Source: Escherichia phage kaaroe
Length of the DNA stretch: 64,000 nucleotides
Strand: one strand, 5' to 3'
Sequence record: MN850574.1
Both the position numbers and the translations under genes were made by a program. The notes beneath the pieces were generated by a model, which was not told the origin of the DNA, ran no database searches, and worked only from the letters and a program-made list of their open reading frames with translations. Below, in pieces: positions 42,385 to 61,766 of this stretch. Positions within the stretch are counted from its first letter, which is position 1; the number at the start of each line of letters is the position of its first letter.

Positions 42385-42394
42385 GGTGATTATT

Positions 42395-42922
42395 ATGGAA
42401 TGGGAAGTTGGTAAAACTTACAAGATTGAATGCGAAGCGTCGAAAGCCGAACTGACTAAATTTTCGTCGTCTATTAACAGATGTATTGTTGACTTGTTGG
42501 CTGGTCGCCCGTTTAGGGTAGAAGACCTTGACGATGATGGTGATGTTAGAGAAATTACTATTATTGGTAGTGATTTCGACTCTATGACGTTAAAAGAATC
42601 CCCTATTGGTTGTTCTGGTGTGTGGTTTTGGTCGGGTGAGCGTCGTTTCTTTACCGAAGTTACTATTGAACCTAAGATTCCAGATTCAGAAGAAAAAGAA
42701 GAAGACCTAACTTTAGAACGCCTGGGTCTGCTTATGGAAGCCTACGACATTCAGTTGATCGATAAGATGGGGTTACATAATAGCATTGCCAAAATTACTA
42801 CCCTAGAAGGTATTAAGAGCGTACTGGATGGTATGCCTAGCCGGATCGGTGCTATCAGAGAATACAAACAAACGCGCGACCGTATGATCCAATTAGAATC
42901 ACGTATCAAAAATGAGAGATGA
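42395..42922 (+). CDS. WExGKTY-family protein, paralog 1
   Basis: N-terminus MEWEVGKTYKIE; coiled-coil C-terminus; first of four tandem paralogs. Confidence 0.55.
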   Translation: MEWEVGKTYKIECEASKAELTKFSSSINRCIVDLLAGRPFRVEDLDDDGDVREITIIGSDFDSMTLKESPIGCSGVWFWSGERRFFTEVTIEPKIPDSEEKEEDLTLERLGLLMEAYDIQLIDKMGLHNSIAKITTLEGIKSVLDGMPSRIGAIREYKQTRDRMIQLESRIKNER

Positions 42923-42926
42923 TATT

Positions 42927-43391
42927 ATGAAATGGGAAGCTGGTAAGACCTATGCGTGGAAAGATGTAAAAGATGCAAACCAATTTTTTAAATGGTATGA
43001 TGTTGATTATTTGAAATATCTGCGATTACCGTTTAAAGTTGCGTCGGTTGATGCGAAAAAAGGATACGTGCGGTCTGTTTATCTTCATGATGGAACTTAT
43101 ATGAGTTCAACCGATGTAGGTCTATCTTGTTGGTTTCTGGATCATGACCGTAGCAGATTTGAAGAAATTATTATTCCAGAAGAATCTAAATTAATTGACC
43201 TTCTCAAATTGGCGATGGATAATTATAAAATTCGCTTTGAATGCAAATCACATGCGGCTATCGGTGCTAACGCCTTGCGTCATATCTCCAGTTTTGAAGA
43301 GTTGAAAGATTTTCTTGACAAAATGCCGGAAAGAGTGCAAGCTATACAGGAAGCTGAGAAAGCATTAAACGAACTTGATAAAATCGGTTAA
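42927..43391 (+). CDS. WExGKTY-family protein, paralog 2
   Basis: MKWEAGKTYAWKD; C-terminal ALNELDKIG. Confidence 0.55.
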   Translation: MKWEAGKTYAWKDVKDANQFFKWYDVDYLKYLRLPFKVASVDAKKGYVRSVYLHDGTYMSSTDVGLSCWFLDHDRSRFEEIIIPEESKLIDLLKLAMDNYKIRFECKSHAAIGANALRHISSFEELKDFLDKMPERVQAIQEAEKALNELDKIG

Positions 43392-43403
43392 GGGGAATAT
43401 ATT

Positions 43404-44228
43404 ATGAAATGGGAAATTGGTAAAACTTACACTTGGAAAGATGAAAACGCGAAAACTGAGTTTATTACTAACGGAGAAGGTGTTCTTTCTCCACTTAACA
43501 GCGATATCAGTGCAGCTATTGGTGACAAGCCATTTACCATCATCGAGATCGAGGGTAACGGTTGGATTGATGCAATAGAGCTAGACGGTGTTTATCATAC
43601 GGCGAAAACTGCTACAGGAAAAGACATTTGGACTGCAACATATTTCTTTAGTCCATTCGATAGAAAATTCTTTCGTGAAGTTGAAGAAGTTCCCCAGAAA
43701 TGGGAAGTTGGTAAAACTTATACTTGGAAAGATGCGAATGCTATGACCGACTTCTGTCATTATGCTGAAAACGTATCTAACCTTAATTATGTTATTGCAC
43801 GAGCAATAAATTATAGACCTTTTACTGTTAAAAATGTTAGTCCATGTGGGCAAGTTAATGTAATTGAAATTGATGGTAAAGACCATACTCTAATGAGTGC
43901 AACCGAAGATAGCGACCATAAAGGAACTAGCTGGTTTATTGATTCTGATAGAAAATTCTTTCGTGAAGTAGAAGAATTGGAAGTTATAACCACTGATTCT
44001 AAGATCGTTGGACAGTTGAAACGTCTGTTTAGTAGTCGTTATGGCCTGACAATGGTTAAATTTAGCGAAGCAAATGAAGGTAAAACCTTTGAACGTTTCG
44101 ATGATTTCATCGCAGCACTTGACAAGATGGACGAAATAATGCAAGATCGCCAGAAGATTAAAGACCTTCAAGAAGACATTAAACGTCGTGAAGTTGAATT
44201 TTTGATTGGTAAAGAGCGAGGTTGGTAA
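43404..44228 (+). CDS. WExGKTY-family protein, paralog 3 (internally duplicated)
   Basis: MKWEIGKTYTWKD and second copy QKWEVGKTYTWKD, each followed by RKFFREVEE. Confidence 0.55.
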   Translation: MKWEIGKTYTWKDENAKTEFITNGEGVLSPLNSDISAAIGDKPFTIIEIEGNGWIDAIELDGVYHTAKTATGKDIWTATYFFSPFDRKFFREVEEVPQKWEVGKTYTWKDANAMTDFCHYAENVSNLNYVIARAINYRPFTVKNVSPCGQVNVIEIDGKDHTLMSATEDSDHKGTSWFIDSDRKFFREVEELEVITTDSKIVGQLKRLFSSRYGLTMVKFSEANEGKTFERFDDFIAALDKMDEIMQDRQKIKDLQEDIKRREVEFLIGKERGW

Positions 44229-44229
44229 T

Positions 44230-44706
44230 ATGTTTGTTGTTGGCATGACCTATCAGTGGAAAAACGAACAAGCGCGTAAAGCCTTTGCAACCAGTGATGC
44301 GAATCGTGTGATCTCCGAGTTTATCGGGGACCGTCAGTTTAAAGTCTTAGCTATTGATTCATCTACTATACCTGAATATGTTTCTGTGATTGAAATCGAT
44401 GGTAAGGCTTACCAGTGTCCAGACAATGAAAAGGTTTATCTTTATGCTTGTAATTGGTTTTCACCTACCGAAGATCAATATTTTAAAGTAGTATCAGCAG
44501 AACTATCATCCGAAGCAATGATGCAACAATTCTTCAATAACTACGAAGTTTCTGTGCGTCGCTATGGCGAAGAAGAAGTGTTTAAAATCGATGATTACAA
44601 TCAGTTTAAACGAGTATTCGCCACTAAGTTGCAGCGTGACTTTGAACGTGACCAACGGATCAAGGAACTGGAAGAAGAACTAGAAAGATTAAAGGCTGAG
44701 AAATGA
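44230..44706 (+). CDS. WExGKTY-family protein, paralog 4
   Basis: MFVVGMTYQWKNEQARKAF; C-terminal LEEELERLKAEK. Confidence 0.55.
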   Translation: MFVVGMTYQWKNEQARKAFATSDANRVISEFIGDRQFKVLAIDSSTIPEYVSVIEIDGKAYQCPDNEKVYLYACNWFSPTEDQYFKVVSAELSSEAMMQQFFNNYEVSVRRYGEEEVFKIDDYNQFKRVFATKLQRDFERDQRIKELEEELERLKAEK

Positions 44707-44972
44707 TCGAGATATACGGTATACCGAAAGAGGCTTATCATTGTTATGGTTGTATTAGTGCAATGAAGCTACTGGATGATCTGGGTATTCCGTATACACT
44801 TAAACCAGTATTCAAGCAGGTCGGGGTTGACATTATTCCCGACCGTGATATGATTGAAGAACTGGCGGGGAGGCTGAACTCAAAGAGCCTCCGGTTTGTA
44901 TACCCCCAGATATTCATTGACAACGAGCACATTGGAGGCTATAAAGAACTGAGGGCGATTTATGATTATTGA
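44703..44972 (+). CDS. glutaredoxin-like protein (NrdH-like)
   Basis: CYGC redox motif near N-terminus; ...IFIDNEHIGGY... glutaredoxin-fold signature. Confidence 0.65.
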   Translation: MIEIYGIPKEAYHCYGCISAMKLLDDLGIPYTLKPVFKQVGVDIIPDRDMIEELAGRLNSKSLRFVYPQIFIDNEHIGGYKELRAIYDY

Positions 44973-45120
44973 GAATTTAGTTTCGGTATTCATTATTGCT
45001 TTATTTGCTATAATGGCTTTACCGTTGAAGAAGTGTAAACACTGTAACGGAACAGGATTGCGTGGTGATGGGTGTTGCGCTCATTGTCATGGATCTGGTA
45101 AAGTAAGTATCATTAAGTAA
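44962..45120 (+). CDS. membrane-anchored miniprotein with DnaJ-type zinc finger (52 aa)
   Basis: N-terminal TM helix then CKHCNGTG and CAHCHGSG (two CxxCxGxG repeats); below track cutoff. Confidence 0.45.
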   Translation: MIIENLVSVFIIALFAIMALPLKKCKHCNGTGLRGDGCCAHCHGSGKVSIIK

Positions 45121-45141
45121 TTCTTGAGTGAGGAATATATT

Positions 45142-45429
45142 ATGTTAGTACACAATGCAATCGCACACATGGTTTATTCTCGATTTGGGCGCATGGAAGA
45201 AATCAATATTACCGACGCAGATTTAGATCTGATGCAAGTCGAAGGCCAGACATATCTGAAAAATAACGGCGTGAATATCGGTAAAGCGCGTGTGCGTGAA
45301 TTGTTGGTTGAATATATTCTCTCTGAATTTGGCATTAGTGCTTTCGGTGTGAAAGAGATTGCACCTAAGCGCGAAATTTCTGATAAAATGATCAAGAAAT
45401 GCCAGAAAGAACGACGTAAGGGTTTCTAA
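45142..45429 (+). CDS. hypothetical protein (95 aa)
   Basis: ATG with GAGGAATATATTATG RBS (track ORF begins TTG 45124). Confidence 0.5.
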   Translation: MLVHNAIAHMVYSRFGRMEEINITDADLDLMQVEGQTYLKNNGVNIGKARVRELLVEYILSEFGISAFGVKEIAPKREISDKMIKKCQKERRKGF

Positions 45430-46898
45430 TGAAGATTGAAACATTAATCGCATTGCCAGCGGCGGGGAAAACTGATGCTATACTTTCCCACGTCCTAGAG
45501 ACAAAAGAAAAAGCGGTTATTGCTTCGCCATCTCGTGTTTTAAGTGAACAATCTTACAATAAGTTTAAAAGAATGGGCGGTCGTGCTGTCTTGATTGATA
45601 GCACAAGACTAAGAAGCCTTAAGACAGTGCAAGCGTCGATAATGCAATCAGTTAAAGATGGTGCTGATGTGATATTCATTACACATACAGCGTTATCTAA
45701 TATGGAACGTTCAAAAATGTTTGGTGATTATGCTCTTTACATTGATGAAGTTCCTCAACTGGTTGAATTTAATGAGTATCCGTTTAAGTCTAATCTTGAA
45801 CTTATCACGAAGCATTGCGAACCAATCGCCGACGAATCGGAATGCCTACAGAACTTAGTTCTAAAAGACTCTGAGAAGGCCGCTATCAAAGAAAAGATAG
45901 AAAGTGCGAAGGATGGTACTGATATGATCGATTCTTCTCTTAGAGGGCTTTATGAGGCGTTATTAGAGAAGAAAATCAACGTTATGGTAAAACATAACGA
46001 AGGACACCGGAAGAATGGGTCGAAAATTGTTTTCTTGAACGATAACAAACACGGTACGTGGGGAGACTTTAAAAAGGTTACGATAGCATGTGCAAATCTC
46101 TTTGATACATATAGTGGGAAGTATCTACGATACTATGCAAATTGCGATTTTGTTCCGAGTGCGCTAGAATCCAGACTATATTTCAAAGAGTATAAAAATA
46201 CAGATAGAGTTAATATCATCCTTATGACGGACTCTGAACGATGGTCGCGTCACCAGTCAGAAACAAACAATACCTTTGAACGTCTTGTTGATATGGTTAA
46301 AAATGAATGTGGCGATGACTTCATTTATACCGTGAATCGGGACCGTGAAGCGTGTACAAATGGTATTGGTGAGCGGATACCTTACGGGTCTTATGGTCTT
46401 AACTCTTACATTCATCATAAAAATGTTGCTGTGATGTTCAGCTTTAACCCTCAACGATGGGAGATTGATATTTTAAAAGGTCTTGCTAATAGTTGTGATC
46501 TCCCGACAAACGAGTTTTTGAAAGCGCGTCATGTGTCTGATTATCTGGAACCAGCATTTCAATTATGTTTGCGTTGTAACCTGAGAGACAACGAGAGCAA
46601 GGAGAATGTTAATCTATATGTTCCTGATTGGGCGTTGGTGGATTATCTAAAAACGTTTCTGCCTAATGCCAATGTAATAACAGATCGAATGATTCCGCTA
46701 GAATGTGGTGAACGTAAAGGGCGAAAATCATTTAAAAAGATGTTCGACTTTAACGAGCAAGAGAATGCAAGATTTAACGGATTTAAGTACCGCATGAAGA
46801 AAAAAGGAAAAACTCTTGATCCGTCTGACGGCGAATCTGTAGAGATGGTTAGAGTGTGGATAACTAAGCAAAGAAAGTATAATGGTAATGGGGAATAG
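45429..46898 (+). CDS. P-loop NTPase, helicase-like (function unknown)
   Basis: 489 aa; Walker A ALPAAGKTD at residues 8-16, Walker B ALYIDEV; occupies the position of alpha-gt in T4. Confidence 0.6.
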   Translation: MKIETLIALPAAGKTDAILSHVLETKEKAVIASPSRVLSEQSYNKFKRMGGRAVLIDSTRLRSLKTVQASIMQSVKDGADVIFITHTALSNMERSKMFGDYALYIDEVPQLVEFNEYPFKSNLELITKHCEPIADESECLQNLVLKDSEKAAIKEKIESAKDGTDMIDSSLRGLYEALLEKKINVMVKHNEGHRKNGSKIVFLNDNKHGTWGDFKKVTIACANLFDTYSGKYLRYYANCDFVPSALESRLYFKEYKNTDRVNIILMTDSERWSRHQSETNNTFERLVDMVKNECGDDFIYTVNRDREACTNGIGERIPYGSYGLNSYIHHKNVAVMFSFNPQRWEIDILKGLANSCDLPTNEFLKARHVSDYLEPAFQLCLRCNLRDNESKENVNLYVPDWALVDYLKTFLPNANVITDRMIPLECGERKGRKSFKKMFDFNEQENARFNGFKYRMKKKGKTLDPSDGESVEMVRVWITKQRKYNGNGE

Positions 46899-46938
46899 CC
46901 CGAAAGGGTTATTTCCTAAATAATAGCGAGGGTGCGAA

Positions 46939-47472
46939 GTGTCTGATTATGTAAACAATAAAGAGCTTTACGAAGAAATTTGCCGTTGGAAACAACAAAT
47001 TGCAGCAGAAGGTCGGCAAGTTCCAATGAGCGATCAAATCGGCCTAGCAATTATGCAAATCTCTAAAAATCTATCACGTCGTTTTAACTTTTCTGGTTAT
47101 AGTCAAACGTGGCGCGAAGAAATGATCGACGACGGAATCGAAGCGGCGGTCAAGGGTTTGATTAATTTTGACGAGACAAAGTATAAAAATCCTCATGCTT
47201 ACATCACGCAAGCGTGCTTTAATGCTTTTGTACAGCGCATTAAAAAAGAGAGAACAGCGACAGCCGCAAAATACAAATATTTTGTGCATCATGTATATGA
47301 CGAACGCGACGCTGATATGTGCCAGATTGCTGATGAGGCATTCATACAGGACATTTACGATAAAATCAACAACTACGAGGAATCGGTCAATAAACCGAAA
47401 GCGCCAAAGGTTGAAGATGTATTGACCGAGGAATTGCCTAGCTTGGACCAATTTTATGAGATTGAAAATTAA
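46939..47472 (+). CDS. 55: late sigma factor gp55
   Basis: [49 protein letters not shown] match remembered T4 gp55; GTG start with GAGGG RBS. Confidence 0.85.
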
Positions 47473-47689
47473 CATTTCCCGTTTGCTGGAAGAAGCAGAG
47501 TTTGAAACTGACCTTGTGCCGTATTTCGCCAAATTATTTTTGAGAGATTGCGGCGTTCCGGTGATTATCGATCCGTGCAATATCAAATCACCGGATCTTG
47601 AGGTCTTTACGGGTACAATCTCACATAGCTATAATGTATCAGAAGATGAATTTTCTTTAATAATTGATTATATCCCAGAGGTAAAATAA
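47456..47689 (+). CDS. hypothetical protein (77 aa)
   Basis: ORF overlapping gp55 3' end; no clear RBS. Confidence 0.4.
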
Positions 47690-47690
47690 T

Positions 47691-47978
47691 ATGACTTGCA
47701 ATGAACAGCATGACCAGATTGCAGTGAATGAAGTAGACAAAGTACAAGCAGAACTAGAGGCTAAAGCCGCTAAGAAAGCGGAAAAGATCTTGCGTAAGAA
47801 CTCGCGAGAGATTGCACGCCTTAAGCGGTGGGCTGAACAAGCTATCATCGATGATAACCGTGATGCGTATATCTACGCTATCGGAAAGTTACGTGATATC
47901 TACAAACAGCCACACACGCCAGAACTGCTTTCTGCTATGTGGATTAGTACACGGCAAACGGTATTAAGTATGCTGTAA
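47691..47978 (+). CDS. hypothetical protein (95 aa)
   Basis: ORF with RBS. Confidence 0.5.
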   Translation: MTCNEQHDQIAVNEVDKVQAELEAKAAKKAEKILRKNSREIARLKRWAEQAIIDDNRDAYIYAIGKLRDIYKQPHTPELLSAMWISTRQTVLSML

Positions 47979-48000
47979 TGGCTTTATAGGGGAGACTCTG

Positions 48001-48025
48001 AAAGGGGTTTCCCTTTTTATTTTTC
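48001..48025 (+). terminator. intrinsic terminator
   Basis: aaaggg-gttt-cccttt hairpin followed by TTTATTTTT. Confidence 0.5.
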
Positions 48026-48068
48026 TGTGATATAGTGAGAGCATCGAAAACGAAGAGAGGAAGAGACT

Positions 48069-49094
48069 ATGAAAATTTTGCTTTTAGGTGATCTGCATAC
48101 TGGTATCGGTGGCGATGATCCGTGGGTGCATGAGTATATTCTTGATACCATCAAGAAGGCGGTTGAATACTCCAAAGAGCATAATATTAAGACATGGATT
48201 CAAACAGGGGATTGGTTTGATTGCCGAAAAGCAATTACCCATGAAACCATGAAATTTAACCGTACTAAGGTCATCCCATTACTGGAAGAGGCTGGAATTA
48301 CTTGTTATATCACGGTCGGGAACCATGATATGTTTAAACGAAACAAGATCCAGCCTAACGCACCGCGTGAAGTGTTAAGCCAGTATGATTGCATTAAGGT
48401 TATCGATAAACCGGAAACAGTTACCTTTGATGGTGTATCATTTGATCTGTTCCCGTGGTTTTGTGATGACAATAAATCAGAGATTTTAGAGTTTATTCAA
48501 AACTCATTCAGCGAATATTGTGTAGGCCATTGGGAATTGTCCGGTTACTATTTCTATAAAGGGCTAAAATCCGAAGGTTATAGCGCGGACTTCCTCAAGA
48601 AATACCGTGAAGTGTTTTCCGGTCATTTTCATACTATCAGCGATGGCGGTAATGTAACGTATATCGGTACACCATACACACTAACGGCGGGTGACGAAAA
48701 CGATCCGCGTGGGTTTTGGGTATTCGATACCGATACACACAAAAAAGAGTTTATCCAGAATGACAAAACTTATCATGTGCGTATCACTTACCCGTCAGAT
48801 GATAAAATCGATGTAGAACGCTTTAAGGGGCTTAGTGTGCGTCTTATTGCAACGGTTGCTGATAATGGGTTAACTAAGTTAGAAAGCGCGTTAGAGGCCG
48901 TTGTACACAAGCTAAAAGTGGTCCATAAACTGGAGAGTAGCGCATCACAGGAAACAGGTGTTATTGAAGTTAAAAGCACTATTCAGATGGTATATGAATA
49001 TCTGGAAGAACAAAACCTAGAACCGGAAGAACTTGCGGCGGTCAAGCGTATTTCTGATGAACTTTTAGCCGAGGTAAATAGCGCAAAAAGTTAG
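48069..49094 (+). CDS. 47: recombination endonuclease subunit gp47 (Mre11-like)
   Basis: 341 aa; phosphoesterase motifs GDLH, GDWFD, GNHD, GHWE, GHFH; collinear with T4 gp47. Confidence 0.9.
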   Translation: MKILLLGDLHTGIGGDDPWVHEYILDTIKKAVEYSKEHNIKTWIQTGDWFDCRKAITHETMKFNRTKVIPLLEEAGITCYITVGNHDMFKRNKIQPNAPREVLSQYDCIKVIDKPETVTFDGVSFDLFPWFCDDNKSEILEFIQNSFSEYCVGHWELSGYYFYKGLKSEGYSADFLKKYREVFSGHFHTISDGGNVTYIGTPYTLTAGDENDPRGFWVFDTDTHKKEFIQNDKTYHVRITYPSDDKIDVERFKGLSVRLIATVADNGLTKLESALEAVVHKLKVVHKLESSASQETGVIEVKSTIQMVYEYLEEQNLEPEELAAVKRISDELLAEVNSAKS

Positions 49095-60039: not shown

Positions 60040-60357
60040 ATGGATAAGAAACCAACAAGTTTAGAAGAAGCACACGGCTTGATTCAAGAAGCAATGAAGA
60101 CAGTTATTCAGGAATTGATAATTGTTGATGAAGAGGGAGAGCATCATATTGTCTATATTCATAATGTTGAATACGATCCAGACACTAAAGGTATTGTGGT
60201 CGACTACTCCACGCCGTCAGATCGTGATGTGGTATATCCACACGTCATTAAGGCGTTAACCGCGCAGATCAAAGAAGCAGAAGAAAAGTTGAAAAAAGAA
60301 ACTTTCTGGTATAAACTCAAGACCTTTGTTATGCGTGTAGTTGGGGGCTATGTATGA
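60040..60357 (+). CDS. 40: gp40-like protein (by synteny between uvsX and 41)
   Basis: 105 aa; positional call. Confidence 0.5.
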   Translation: MDKKPTSLEEAHGLIQEAMKTVIQELIIVDEEGEHHIVYIHNVEYDPDTKGIVVDYSTPSDRDVVYPHVIKALTAQIKEAEEKLKKETFWYKLKTFVMRVVGGYV

Positions 60358-61766
60358 TTAAAACTATCTTTTCACAGTTGATTTACAATGGCGCATTCTT
60401 TACGAATGTATGGCCTCACCTTAAAGCGGACTACTTCACCGAAGACGAAGAAAAACTGATTTATAAGCTGATTAAAAAGCACGTAGACGAATATTCCAAC
60501 ATTCCTACGCCAACTGCATTACATATTGCTTTAGACAAGGAGAGAGGCAATCAGACAACATATGAAGGGGCTAAAACTCTTCTTGATTCGCTTGAGAATA
60601 CACCGGAAGACCTTGATTGGTTAATGAAGGAAACCGAAAAATTTATTCGTGACCGTGCCATGTATAATGCAATGTCACGGGCGCTAGAGATTCAGGCGAA
60701 CGCACAACTACCAAAAGAGAAACAGAATAAGAAATTGCCGAGTGAGGGTGCTATTCCTGAGATCATGCAGGAAGCACTATCAATTACGTTTGATTCTGAT
60801 GTAGGTCATGACTGGTTTAATGACTTTGAAAAACGATTCTTGCTATATCAGACTAAGGCGAATAAGATCCCGTTTAAGCTGCCGATGTTGAATAAAATCA
60901 CGAAAGGAGGGGCGGAAAGAAAAACGCTAAATGTGTTGCTTGCTGGTGTAAATGTTGGTAAATCGCTTGGATTATGTTCTCTTGCTGCGGATTATATGGA
61001 ATGTGGTTATGATGTATTGTATATCTCAATGGAGATGGCAGAGCATGTCGTAGCCAAACGTATCGACGCAAACTTGCTTGACATTACATTAGATGAATTG
61101 GATAATGGTAATGTTTCTTTTGCGGAATATTCCGCACGTATGAAGCGTGTTAAGAATAAGAAGATCGGAGATCGTCCGGTTGGAAAATTGATGATCAAGC
61201 AGTATCCGACTGGTGGCGCGAACTCCAATCACTTTGAGGCGTTAATGAATGAATTGCGACTCAAGAAACAGTTTAAACCTGATGTTGTGATTGTTGACTA
61301 TCTGGGGATTTGCGCATCGTCTCGCTTGCGTGTATACTCTGAAAATAGTTACACACTAGTTAAGGCGATTGCGGAAGAACTGCGAGGATTTTTTGTTAAG
61401 TGGGATGTTGTTGGTTGGACTGCGGCACAGACTACCCGCGCGGGTTGGGATGCTTCCGACCTTAACATGAGTGATACCGCTGAATCAGCAGGTCTTCCGG
61501 CTACTGCCGACTTTATGTTGGGTGTTATCGAAACCGAAGACCTGGCTAAAATGGGCGTCCAACTCATGAAGCAGATCAAGTCTCGTTACGGTGATAAGAA
61601 CTATTATTCACGGTTTAACGTTGGTGTGAAGAAAGGCAATCAGCGTTGGTATGAAGTACCAAACCAGATCGCAGATCAGGAGAATGCACAACTTAAACCA
61701 CAAAGCGCACAGCAAGCCGAGAAACGAGAAAAACTCGACGAGCTAGCAAATAACATGACTTTCTAA
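60354..61766 (+). CDS. 41: replicative DNA helicase gp41 (DnaB-like)
   Basis: 470 aa; Walker A AGVNVGKS, YISMEMAE, IVDYLGI; collinear with T4 gp41. Confidence 0.9.
   Translation: MIKTIFSQLIYNGAFFTNVWPHLKADYFTEDEEKLIYKLIKKHVDEYSNIPTPTALHIALDKERGNQTTYEGAKTLLDSLENTPEDLDWLMKETEKFIRDRAMYNAMSRALEIQANAQLPKEKQNKKLPSEGAIPEIMQEALSITFDSDVGHDWFNDFEKRFLLYQTKANKIPFKLPMLNKITKGGAERKTLNVLLAGVNVGKSLGLCSLAADYMECGYDVLYISMEMAEHVVAKRIDANLLDITLDELDNGNVSFAEYSARMKRVKNKKIGDRPVGKLMIKQYPTGGANSNHFEALMNELRLKKQFKPDVVIVDYLGICASSRLRVYSENSYTLVKAIAEELRGFFVKWDVVGWTAAQTTRAGWDASDLNMSDTAESAGLPATADFMLGVIETEDLAKMGVQLMKQIKSRYGDKNYYSRFNVGVKKGNQRWYEVPNQIADQENAQLKPQSAQQAEKREKLDELANNMTF

Follow-up and report, generated by a model that had tools for sequence, protein, structure and literature searches.

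What kind of protein does Escherichia phage kaaroe encode directly upstream of gene 55, and what might it do for the phage? The locus lies in a 64,000-nucleotide (nt) stretch of sequence record MN850574.1, hereafter called the window. As the initial annotation had stated, the window holds an open reading frame (ORF) of 489 amino acids (aa) at 45429 to 46898 on the plus strand, between the glutaredoxin gene nrdH and gene 55; the ORF listing places two small ORFs, a 52-aa ORF and a homolog of 55.2, between nrdH and it. That annotation had proposed a P-loop NTPase, possibly an accessory helicase or translocase or a defense-related ATPase. By its motifs, the protein is a complete superfamily 2 (SF2) helicase core, catalytically intact and not decayed, and we consider it to be an accessory DNA helicase or translocase for phage replication or recombination, with a probability of roughly 0.6.

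Motifs and predicted fold of the 489-aa protein

The protein is 100% identical to its counterpart in phage JSE and 99.8% identical to that of RB49, and the region from 44700 to 47500 is 99 to 99.9% identical to 58 genomes of Krischvirus, the RB49/JSE/phi1-like T4-type coliphages. The sequence composition of the gene shows nothing unusual. Because of the identity to JSE, the existence of 27 homologs at 32 to 74% identity, the presence in 243 phage records, and the invariance of GKT and DE, the ORF is judged to be a genuine gene, well beyond chance. Conservation was read from two alignments, one of the 27 diverse homologs (A1) and one of 76 stand-alone family members with a mean column identity of 17% (A4). 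The gene and the features of its product are as follows:

45429 to 46898, plus strand: 489-aa SF2 helicase gene (RB49ORF044c homolog; phrog_2467), from the ORF listing, JSE/RB49 identity, and profile match
45450 to 45473, plus strand: motif I/Walker A, residues 8 to 15, ALPAAGKT; G13, K14, and T15 invariant in A1, K14 invariant in A4
45513 to 45554, plus strand: motif Ia, residues 29 to 42, AVIASPSRVLSEQS (family consensus IAxPTxxLxxQ); S33, L38, and S42 invariant and Q41 nearly so in A1
45735 to 45755, plus strand: motif II/Walker B, residues 103 to 109, LYIDEVP; D106 and E107 invariant in A1 and A4
45786 to 46067, plus strand: insertion of ~95 aa in lobe 1 between motifs II and III (residues ~120 to 213), with beta-hairpins and two long helices
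46074 to 46097, plus strand: motif III-like strand, residues 216 to 223, KVTIACAN (family consensus LxAN in A4); T218 and N223 nearly invariant in A1
46098 to 46703, plus strand: second RecA-like lobe, residues ~224 to 425, from fold matches and invariant residues
46383 to 46409, plus strand: motif V, YGSYGLNSY; G323 and N325 invariant family-wide (A4)
46557 to 46586, plus strand: motif VI, FQLCLRCNLR; Q378, R382, and R386 invariant family-wide (A4)
46620 to 46628, plus strand: post-VI VPD; V398 and D400 nearly invariant across the family (A4)
46716 to 46895, plus strand: basic C-terminal two-helix tail, residues 430 to 489; E445 and W477 invariant; T4-like and large-phage subgroup only

The invariant set in A1 consists of G13-K14-T15, D106-E107, G323, N325, Q378, R382, R386, and D400, and eight of these residues (K14, D106, E107, G323, N325, Q378, R382, and R386) are invariant in A4 despite its low mean identity. 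The ATP site is therefore intact and strongly constrained across a divergent family. The family consensus reads AxxGxGKT, IAxPTxxLxxQ, ITHxAL, IDEVP, LxAN, HGLNxY, YQxxxRTSIR, and VPD, blocks that are recognizable as SF2 motifs I, Ia, Ib, II, III, V, and VI. The marks of the superfamily are present in the 489-aa protein itself, with GKT and DExx in lobe 1 and a second RecA lobe carrying motifs V and VI (Q..R...R). The two Walker sequences named in the initial annotation are where it had placed them (ALPAAGKTD at residues 8 to 16 and ALYIDEV at residues 102 to 108, 94 residues later), and its helicase or translocase with an additional-strand, catalytic glutamate (ASCE) core holds as a full SF2 helicase with the motifs listed above, but not as a RecA-type protein.

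Profile searches agree with the superfamily assignment. DEAD/DEAH is the sole Pfam family above cutoff (residues 11 to 130, 27.3 bits against a cutoff of 26), and among the 76 members of A4, DEAD is matched by 51 and ResIII by 28. In PHROGs, phrog_2467, annotated as of unknown function, is matched over residues 1 to 489 with an E value of 2.9e-175, accompanied by a weak match to phrog_31024. No match was found in NCBIfam, nor among PDB sequences with the single protein or a T4-like profile. A broad family profile does match lobe 1 of PriA, Mfd, DEAD-box helicases, reverse gyrase, and UvrB in the PDB at E values of about 1e-6, a generic SF2 result, and it aligns motif Ia to domain 1 of PriA, Mfd, and DEAD-box helicases.

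The AlphaFold2 model, computed on A1, has a mean predicted local distance difference test (pLDDT) score of 87.9 and a predicted template modeling (pTM) score of 0.76. A Foldseek search of the PDB with this model, a check that the initial annotation had called for, returned XPD, DinG, and CasDinG at the top, with E values of 1e-10 to 1e-7 and template modeling (TM) scores of 0.42 to 0.52; DNA helicases give both the best and the longest structural matches. Lobe 1 comprises residues 1 to ~119 plus 216 to 223 in the predicted secondary structure. The two RecA-like lobes would form one ATP site between them, to which lobe 1 would contribute K14 and D106/E107 and lobe 2 Q378, R382, and R386. What had been called a long C-terminal region of unknown fold thus resolves, in the model and the structure search, into the second RecA-like lobe and a 60-aa helical tail. 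In XPD/DinG helicases the Arch domain sits at the position that the lobe 1 insertion takes in the predicted secondary structure; structural alignments to XPD/DinG are longer than those to other SF2 proteins. The tail contains no helix-turn-helix (HTH) or other family by Pfam scan of 17 tails, and hhalign of the T4-like tail against HTH-bearing tails of relatives gave a probability of 0.6%.

Relatives, distribution, and genomic position

An exhaustive profile search retrieved 1,317 cluster representatives at E values of ≤1e-3; among the best of them, lengths fall into two groups, around 500 aa and around 800 aa. What sets the long forms apart is an additional domain of ~310 aa at the C terminus, in which the motif LDFDxGD is conserved. 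This domain has no Pfam or PDB sequence match, and the same region in one representative (P0043) matches phrog_9765, "DNA primase," at 1e-8; by sequence, it is an archaeo-eukaryotic-type primase-polymerase (AEP). Of the best 150 representatives, 67 contain the fused domain according to a hidden Markov model (HMM) of it (A3), always at the C terminus, and no T4-like representative of 440 to 500 aa is among them; the 489-aa protein ends after its 60-aa tail. Another 77 of the 150 stand alone and are of comparable length. One member (P0124) is built differently, with a canonical AEP at the N terminus (VFDFDED, SGHVYV), then a Cys-containing segment (CYAPF..), and an HTH at the end. Fused and stand-alone members all match phrog_2467 over the helicase part (1e-41 to 1e-87).

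The surroundings of the fused forms are those of mobile elements. On one island (L007, 8168 to 12445, and likewise L008), a P4-type integrase, a small ORF, an HTH_17 (AlpA-like) gene, and an 814-aa helicase-AEP primase gene are followed by defense-like cargo (a metallophosphatase, PLD, a phosphatase/ADP-ribosylglycohydrolase protein, and Mrr). A second locus, on a Bradyrhizobium chromosome, lies beside an ATP-dependent ligase and a faint ORC/Cdc6-like match; further loci have resolvase, AAA_25, and DDE transposase genes nearby, and another has an integrase fragment and an MmeI-like restriction-modification system. The integrase/AlpA-like/helicase-primase locus has the layout of a predicted replication module of an integrative element, and the order helicase then AEP appears to be undescribed. 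The 489-aa protein is thus assigned, on profile matches, to a large, little-studied family of helicase modules of mobile genetic elements. The closest stand-alone homologs outside the T4-like phages (P0051 and P0250) are encoded on two phage-like metagenomic contigs of ~140 kb (L017, 11497 to 12672, and L019, 11488 to 13247), where a stretch of 1.2 to 1.8 kb follows that is ORF-free, AT-rich, dense in palindromes and repeats, and devoid of tRNAs. The strands switch convergently there, and the stretch is a candidate for an origin or a regulatory region.

Earlier work had come near this family. Nolan et al. 2006 (PMC1524935) listed RB49ORF044c with a weak DEAD match (E = 0.069), and the record of phage W115 annotates the homolog as a "putative helicase." Independently, Kazlauskas et al. 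2018 (PMC5862659) predicted a new virus and plasmid helicase family fused to AEPs, described the AEP-fused domain as having "only remote similarity to SF2 helicases," and placed the closest homologs of that family in "some T4-like phages." Their description very probably covers the 489-aa protein, and the phrog_2467 family is probably this "novel helicase family" (pVOG1685/9714), an identification that is unconfirmed, as the published alignment is an image. Weak helicase predictions therefore precede ours, and the protein is a new, uncharacterized member of a predicted family and not a new type of system.

A tblastn search found the gene in 243 phage records, near full length (at least 80% coverage) in 237 of them. 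Homologs of gp47, by comparison, are present in 2,367 records, and Dda at ≥95% identity to T4 in 497. The carriers are Krischvirus, Pseudotevenvirus (RB16/RB43), the Aeromonas T4-likes (77 records), T4-likes of Cronobacter, Enterobacter, Citrobacter, Klebsiella, Serratia, Proteus, Morganella, and Erwinia, and the Pseudoalteromonas phages HM1 and PH357; the gene is absent from T4-type Tequatrovirus, including T4 itself. With the fused form as the query, a plasmid collection gave only three weak megaplasmid matches. A genome scan for the context of relatives returned only two T4-like phage contigs, and viral scans with single proteins for the context of distant relatives gave no matches.

The window encodes gp41 (DnaB_C, 60354 to 61766) and UvsX, and Krischvirus Phi1 has Dda. 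Unlike the core replicative gp41, the 489-aa protein has no DnaB_C match in a Pfam scan. The presence of gp41 in the window and of Dda in Krischviruses therefore makes it an additional, accessory helicase and not a substitute for a core one, as the initial annotation had suggested among other roles. A non-orthologous replacement of Dda is ruled out by the dda gene of Phi1.

In T4 the gene order is nrdG-55.8-nrdH-55.6..55.3-55.2-55.1-55-a-gt.5-a-gt.4-a-gt.3-a-gt.2-mobB-a-gt-47; in the window it is nrdG, four paralogous ORFs, nrdH, the 52-aa ORF, 55.2, the helicase gene, 55, a-gt.5, a-gt.4, and 47. The helicase gene therefore sits in the 55.1 slot, between 55.2 and 55, and not in the interval where T4 carries its alpha-glucosyltransferase gene (a-gt), as had been supposed; a-gt is across gene 55. 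In the window, homologs of a-gt.5 and a-gt.4 at 47456 to 47978 are followed by gene 47. The remark that no glucosyltransferase is present was thus accurate for the slot between a-gt.4 and 47, which is empty, but this is a separate matter from the helicase ORF. Erwinia phage Cronus has both a helicase homolog directly upstream of gene 55 and an alpha-glucosyltransferase gene between 55 and 47, so the two genes are independent, and a replacement of the alpha-glucosyltransferase by the helicase is ruled out by Cronus together with the T4 order.

RB49, Aeromonas phage 25, and Cronus all have the gene directly before gene 55, and in the rearranged genome of RB16 it still follows nrdH-55.2 without adjoining gene 55. 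This kept position indicates long vertical retention. The genes upstream of the homolog differ in Aeromonas phage 25 and Cronus. In the former, ORF050c (L013, 2929 to 3504) overlaps the start of the homolog; the label "DprA-like DNA recombination-mediator" that this upstream gene bears in the AS-gz and Aes508 records finds no support in a Pfam scan. The flanking features in the window are as follows:

44703 to 44972: glutaredoxin gene nrdH, upstream of the helicase gene
45084 to 45113, plus strand: sigma-70-like promoter match TTGTCA-18-TATCAT, 10 of 12 positions, just upstream of 55.2
45142 to 45429, plus strand: 55.2 homolog (DUF7570); its stop overlaps the helicase ATG (TAATG)
46897 to 46910, plus strand: GAAA-tetraloop hairpin (AGCCC GAAA GGGTT) over the helicase stop codon, read from the sequence, 29 nt before the gene 55 GTG
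46939 to 47472: gene 55, GTG start, 40 nt downstream of the helicase gene end

Because of the TAATG overlap, which is identical in RB16, the 55.2 homolog and the helicase gene are probably cotranscribed and translationally coupled in RB49-type phages and RB16. The pairing is not obligatory, as T4 has 55.2 without the helicase gene. The TTGTCA-18-TATCAT site is a possible early promoter for the pair; sigma-70-like sites are no more numerous in the region than in shuffled sequences, so the match is weak evidence. A motif search found no T4 late-promoter box near the helicase gene, and the hairpin over its stop codon was not called in the terminator scan.

Several observations concern the neighboring genes. 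The 52-aa ORF (44962 to 45120, plus strand; RB49ORF046c homolog) begins with a hydrophobic helix followed by CKHCNGTG and CAHCHGSG (two CxxCxGxG motifs); it has no Pfam match and looks like a putative membrane-anchored mini-protein with a DnaJ-type zinc finger. Between nrdG and nrdH (42386 to 44706, plus strand), four tandem ORFs (RB49ORF051c to 048c homologs) hold five copies of an ~85-aa module without a Pfam match that starts with W(E/K)xGKTYxWKD and ends with ..FF(R/T)EV, two of them in the ORF at 43404 to 44228; they form a locally amplified paralogous family. Downstream, an HNH/AP2 homing-endonuclease gene (RB49ORF040c) separates a-gt.4 from gene 47 in RB49 but is absent from the window, where 47978 to 48069 holds only a strong terminator-like hairpin (47988 to 48015); T4 and Cronus have a-gt at that site.

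Proposed role and alternatives

Beyond the fold, intact motifs, family membership, primase fusions of the relatives, synteny, and accessory status, which are established, we infer a substrate, a polarity, and a role in replication. The protein, probably a monomer, would be expressed with the early block of nucleotide-metabolism and 55.x genes and would translocate on single-stranded DNA at the expense of ATP, possibly 5' to 3' as XPD and DinG do. It would open duplexes at forks, D-loops, or R-loops to allow priming and synthesis, in cooperation with the T4-type primase and polymerase, and would thus act as a fourth, accessory helicase of replication and recombination beside gp41, Dda, and UvsW.

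Several points weigh against this proposal. The polarity rests on fold resemblance, as there is no sequence link to DinG (hhalign of A1 against E. coli DinG gave a nonsignificant probability of 0.5%), no Fe-S domain, and a motif II that reads DEVP where XPD/DinG have DEAH. The phage protein lacks a primase domain, and none of the adjacent genes was seen to encode an AEP. Only chance-level repeats flank the gene in the window, where iterons and origin-like or unusual repeats were sought. T4 does without the gene, which is therefore not essential to a T4-type replisome. Finally, a full set of motifs does not ensure that an SF2 motor unwinds DNA: IEE is a DNA-dependent ATPase that does not (PMC9943667).

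Among the alternatives, the one that survives best is a factor in counterdefense or conflict between elements, in which a helicase captured from islands or satellites is turned against such elements or against host defense. The gene is indeed accessory (it is found in 243 phage records, a gp47 homolog in 2,367, and T4-type Tequatrovirus lacks it), it lies within a variable block of small accessory ORFs, and its relatives occur on islands with PLD, Mrr, or MmeI-like restriction-modification genes. On the island with the integrase/AlpA-type module, however, the relative holds the place of the replication module and is not cargo, and synteny across genera at 32 to 74% identity suggests an old, stable function rather than arms-race turnover. 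PADLOC returned only noise (RTasSLATT, E = 0.009, 13.6 bits), no nuclease or other effector domain is present, and the fusions of the relatives point to priming and replication, so that the anti-restriction or defense ATPase of the initial annotation is not borne out. We regard such a conflict role as unlikely.

Somewhat more doubtful is an origin-recognizing initiator helicase resembling UL9, whose basic tail would bind a phage site while the motor opens the DNA, providing a route of origin firing that T4 lacks. Weak HTH_23/HTH_Tnp_1-type motifs end some stand-alone relatives, and P0124 ends in an HTH, but neither the Pfam scan nor hhalign (0.6%) detects one in T4-like tails. Similarly, one family member weakly matches Pfam Herpes_ori_bp (E = 0.0014) and a UL9 similarity of pVOG9714 is noted by Kazlauskas et al. 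2018 (PMC5862659), whereas the 489-aa protein has no match to this family (PF02399). The closest non-T4 homologs abut the palindrome-dense region of the two metagenomic contigs; this region, where the strands switch convergently, may be regulatory, and the gene in the window has no iterons or unusual repeats around it.

The DEAD/DEAH box as sole Pfam family above cutoff, and a gene end 40 nt upstream of gene 55, would fit an RNA helicase or a transcription-associated remodeler working with the late sigma factor gp55 or on phage mRNA. We find this improbable: only 7 residues precede the P-loop, leaving no Q-motif, motif II is DEVP and motif III is not SAT, the top structural matches are DNA helicases, the relatives are fused to DNA primase-polymerases, and the gene does not adjoin gene 55 in RB16. 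Least credible of all is the idea that a mobile-element helicase-primase has decayed here into a remnant without enzymatic function. In its favor, the primase domain of 67 of 150 relatives is missing from the protein and T4 lacks the gene; against it, the ATP-site residues are all invariant, the ORF is full length in 237 of 243 records at ≥80% coverage, 77 of 150 representatives stand alone at similar length, and the fold is predicted with high confidence.

An accessory DNA helicase or translocase thus remains our preferred reading. The textbook phage replisome, that of T4, has three helicases; the RB49-, RB43/RB16-, and Aeromonas-type relatives of T4 carry a conserved, predicted fourth motor. 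The same motor is the helicase half of the helicase-then-AEP-primase replicases on bacterial integrative elements, so biochemistry of a small phage protein would characterize that class of replicases as well. A bolder version is a long shot: about one in ten T4-type phages would carry a fourth helicase derived from mobile elements, namely the motor of the helicase-primase replicases of integrative islands. It would serve either as an XPD-like 5'-to-3' initiator or fork helicase, adding a route of replication initiation or restart absent from T4, or as a means to interact with, or resist, islands that share the replicase. The helicase finding in itself opens no long-standing question.

Comparison with known systems

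Herpes UL9 (PF02399) combines an SF2 helicase with a C-terminal DNA-binding region, the arrangement to which Kazlauskas et al. 2018 liken pVOG9714. The 489-aa protein differs in having no PF02399 match at E values of ≤10 (1 of 76 relatives has the subthreshold match given above) and a tail without a detectable origin-binding domain. IEE, the insertion sequence (IS) excision enhancer of E. coli O157, is an AEP-SF2 helicase fusion on a mobile element whose motor is a DNA-dependent ATPase (PMC9943667). Its AEP is N-terminal and its helicase C-terminal, the reverse of the common fused form in the phrog_2467 family, and its helicase, which is aligned with RadD, does not unwind; the likeness is one of architecture. 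DEAD-box RNA helicases differ from the 489-aa protein by their Q motif and in motifs II and III, which here read DEVP and IACAN.

The XPD/Rad3/DinG helicases are nearest in predicted fold. The 489-aa protein has no 4Fe-4S domain, with no Cys in residues 43 to 101 and only C130 and C380 invariant in A1. Some DinG and CasDinG proteins also lack the Fe-S cluster, so its absence does not exclude relatedness. The insertion, at about 95 aa, is much smaller than the Arch domain, and XPD/DinG are absent among the best 60 PDB sequence matches listed for the family profile. Judged from its model, the protein would work like an XPD/DinG-type DNA helicase, though we do not file it as a member.

The AEP-fused modules of phrog_2467 share with the 489-aa protein the match to the family profile, which is full length in the phage protein, and the invariant motifs. 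The phage protein consists of a helicase and a basic helical tail of its own, whereas 67 of 150 members add the C-terminal AEP and helical domain, and P0124 has an N-terminal AEP. The T4 proteins gp41, Dda, and UvsW, the last of which is also an SF2 protein, are likewise phage-encoded DNA motors of T4-type replication and recombination, and it is beside them that the 489-aa protein would act.

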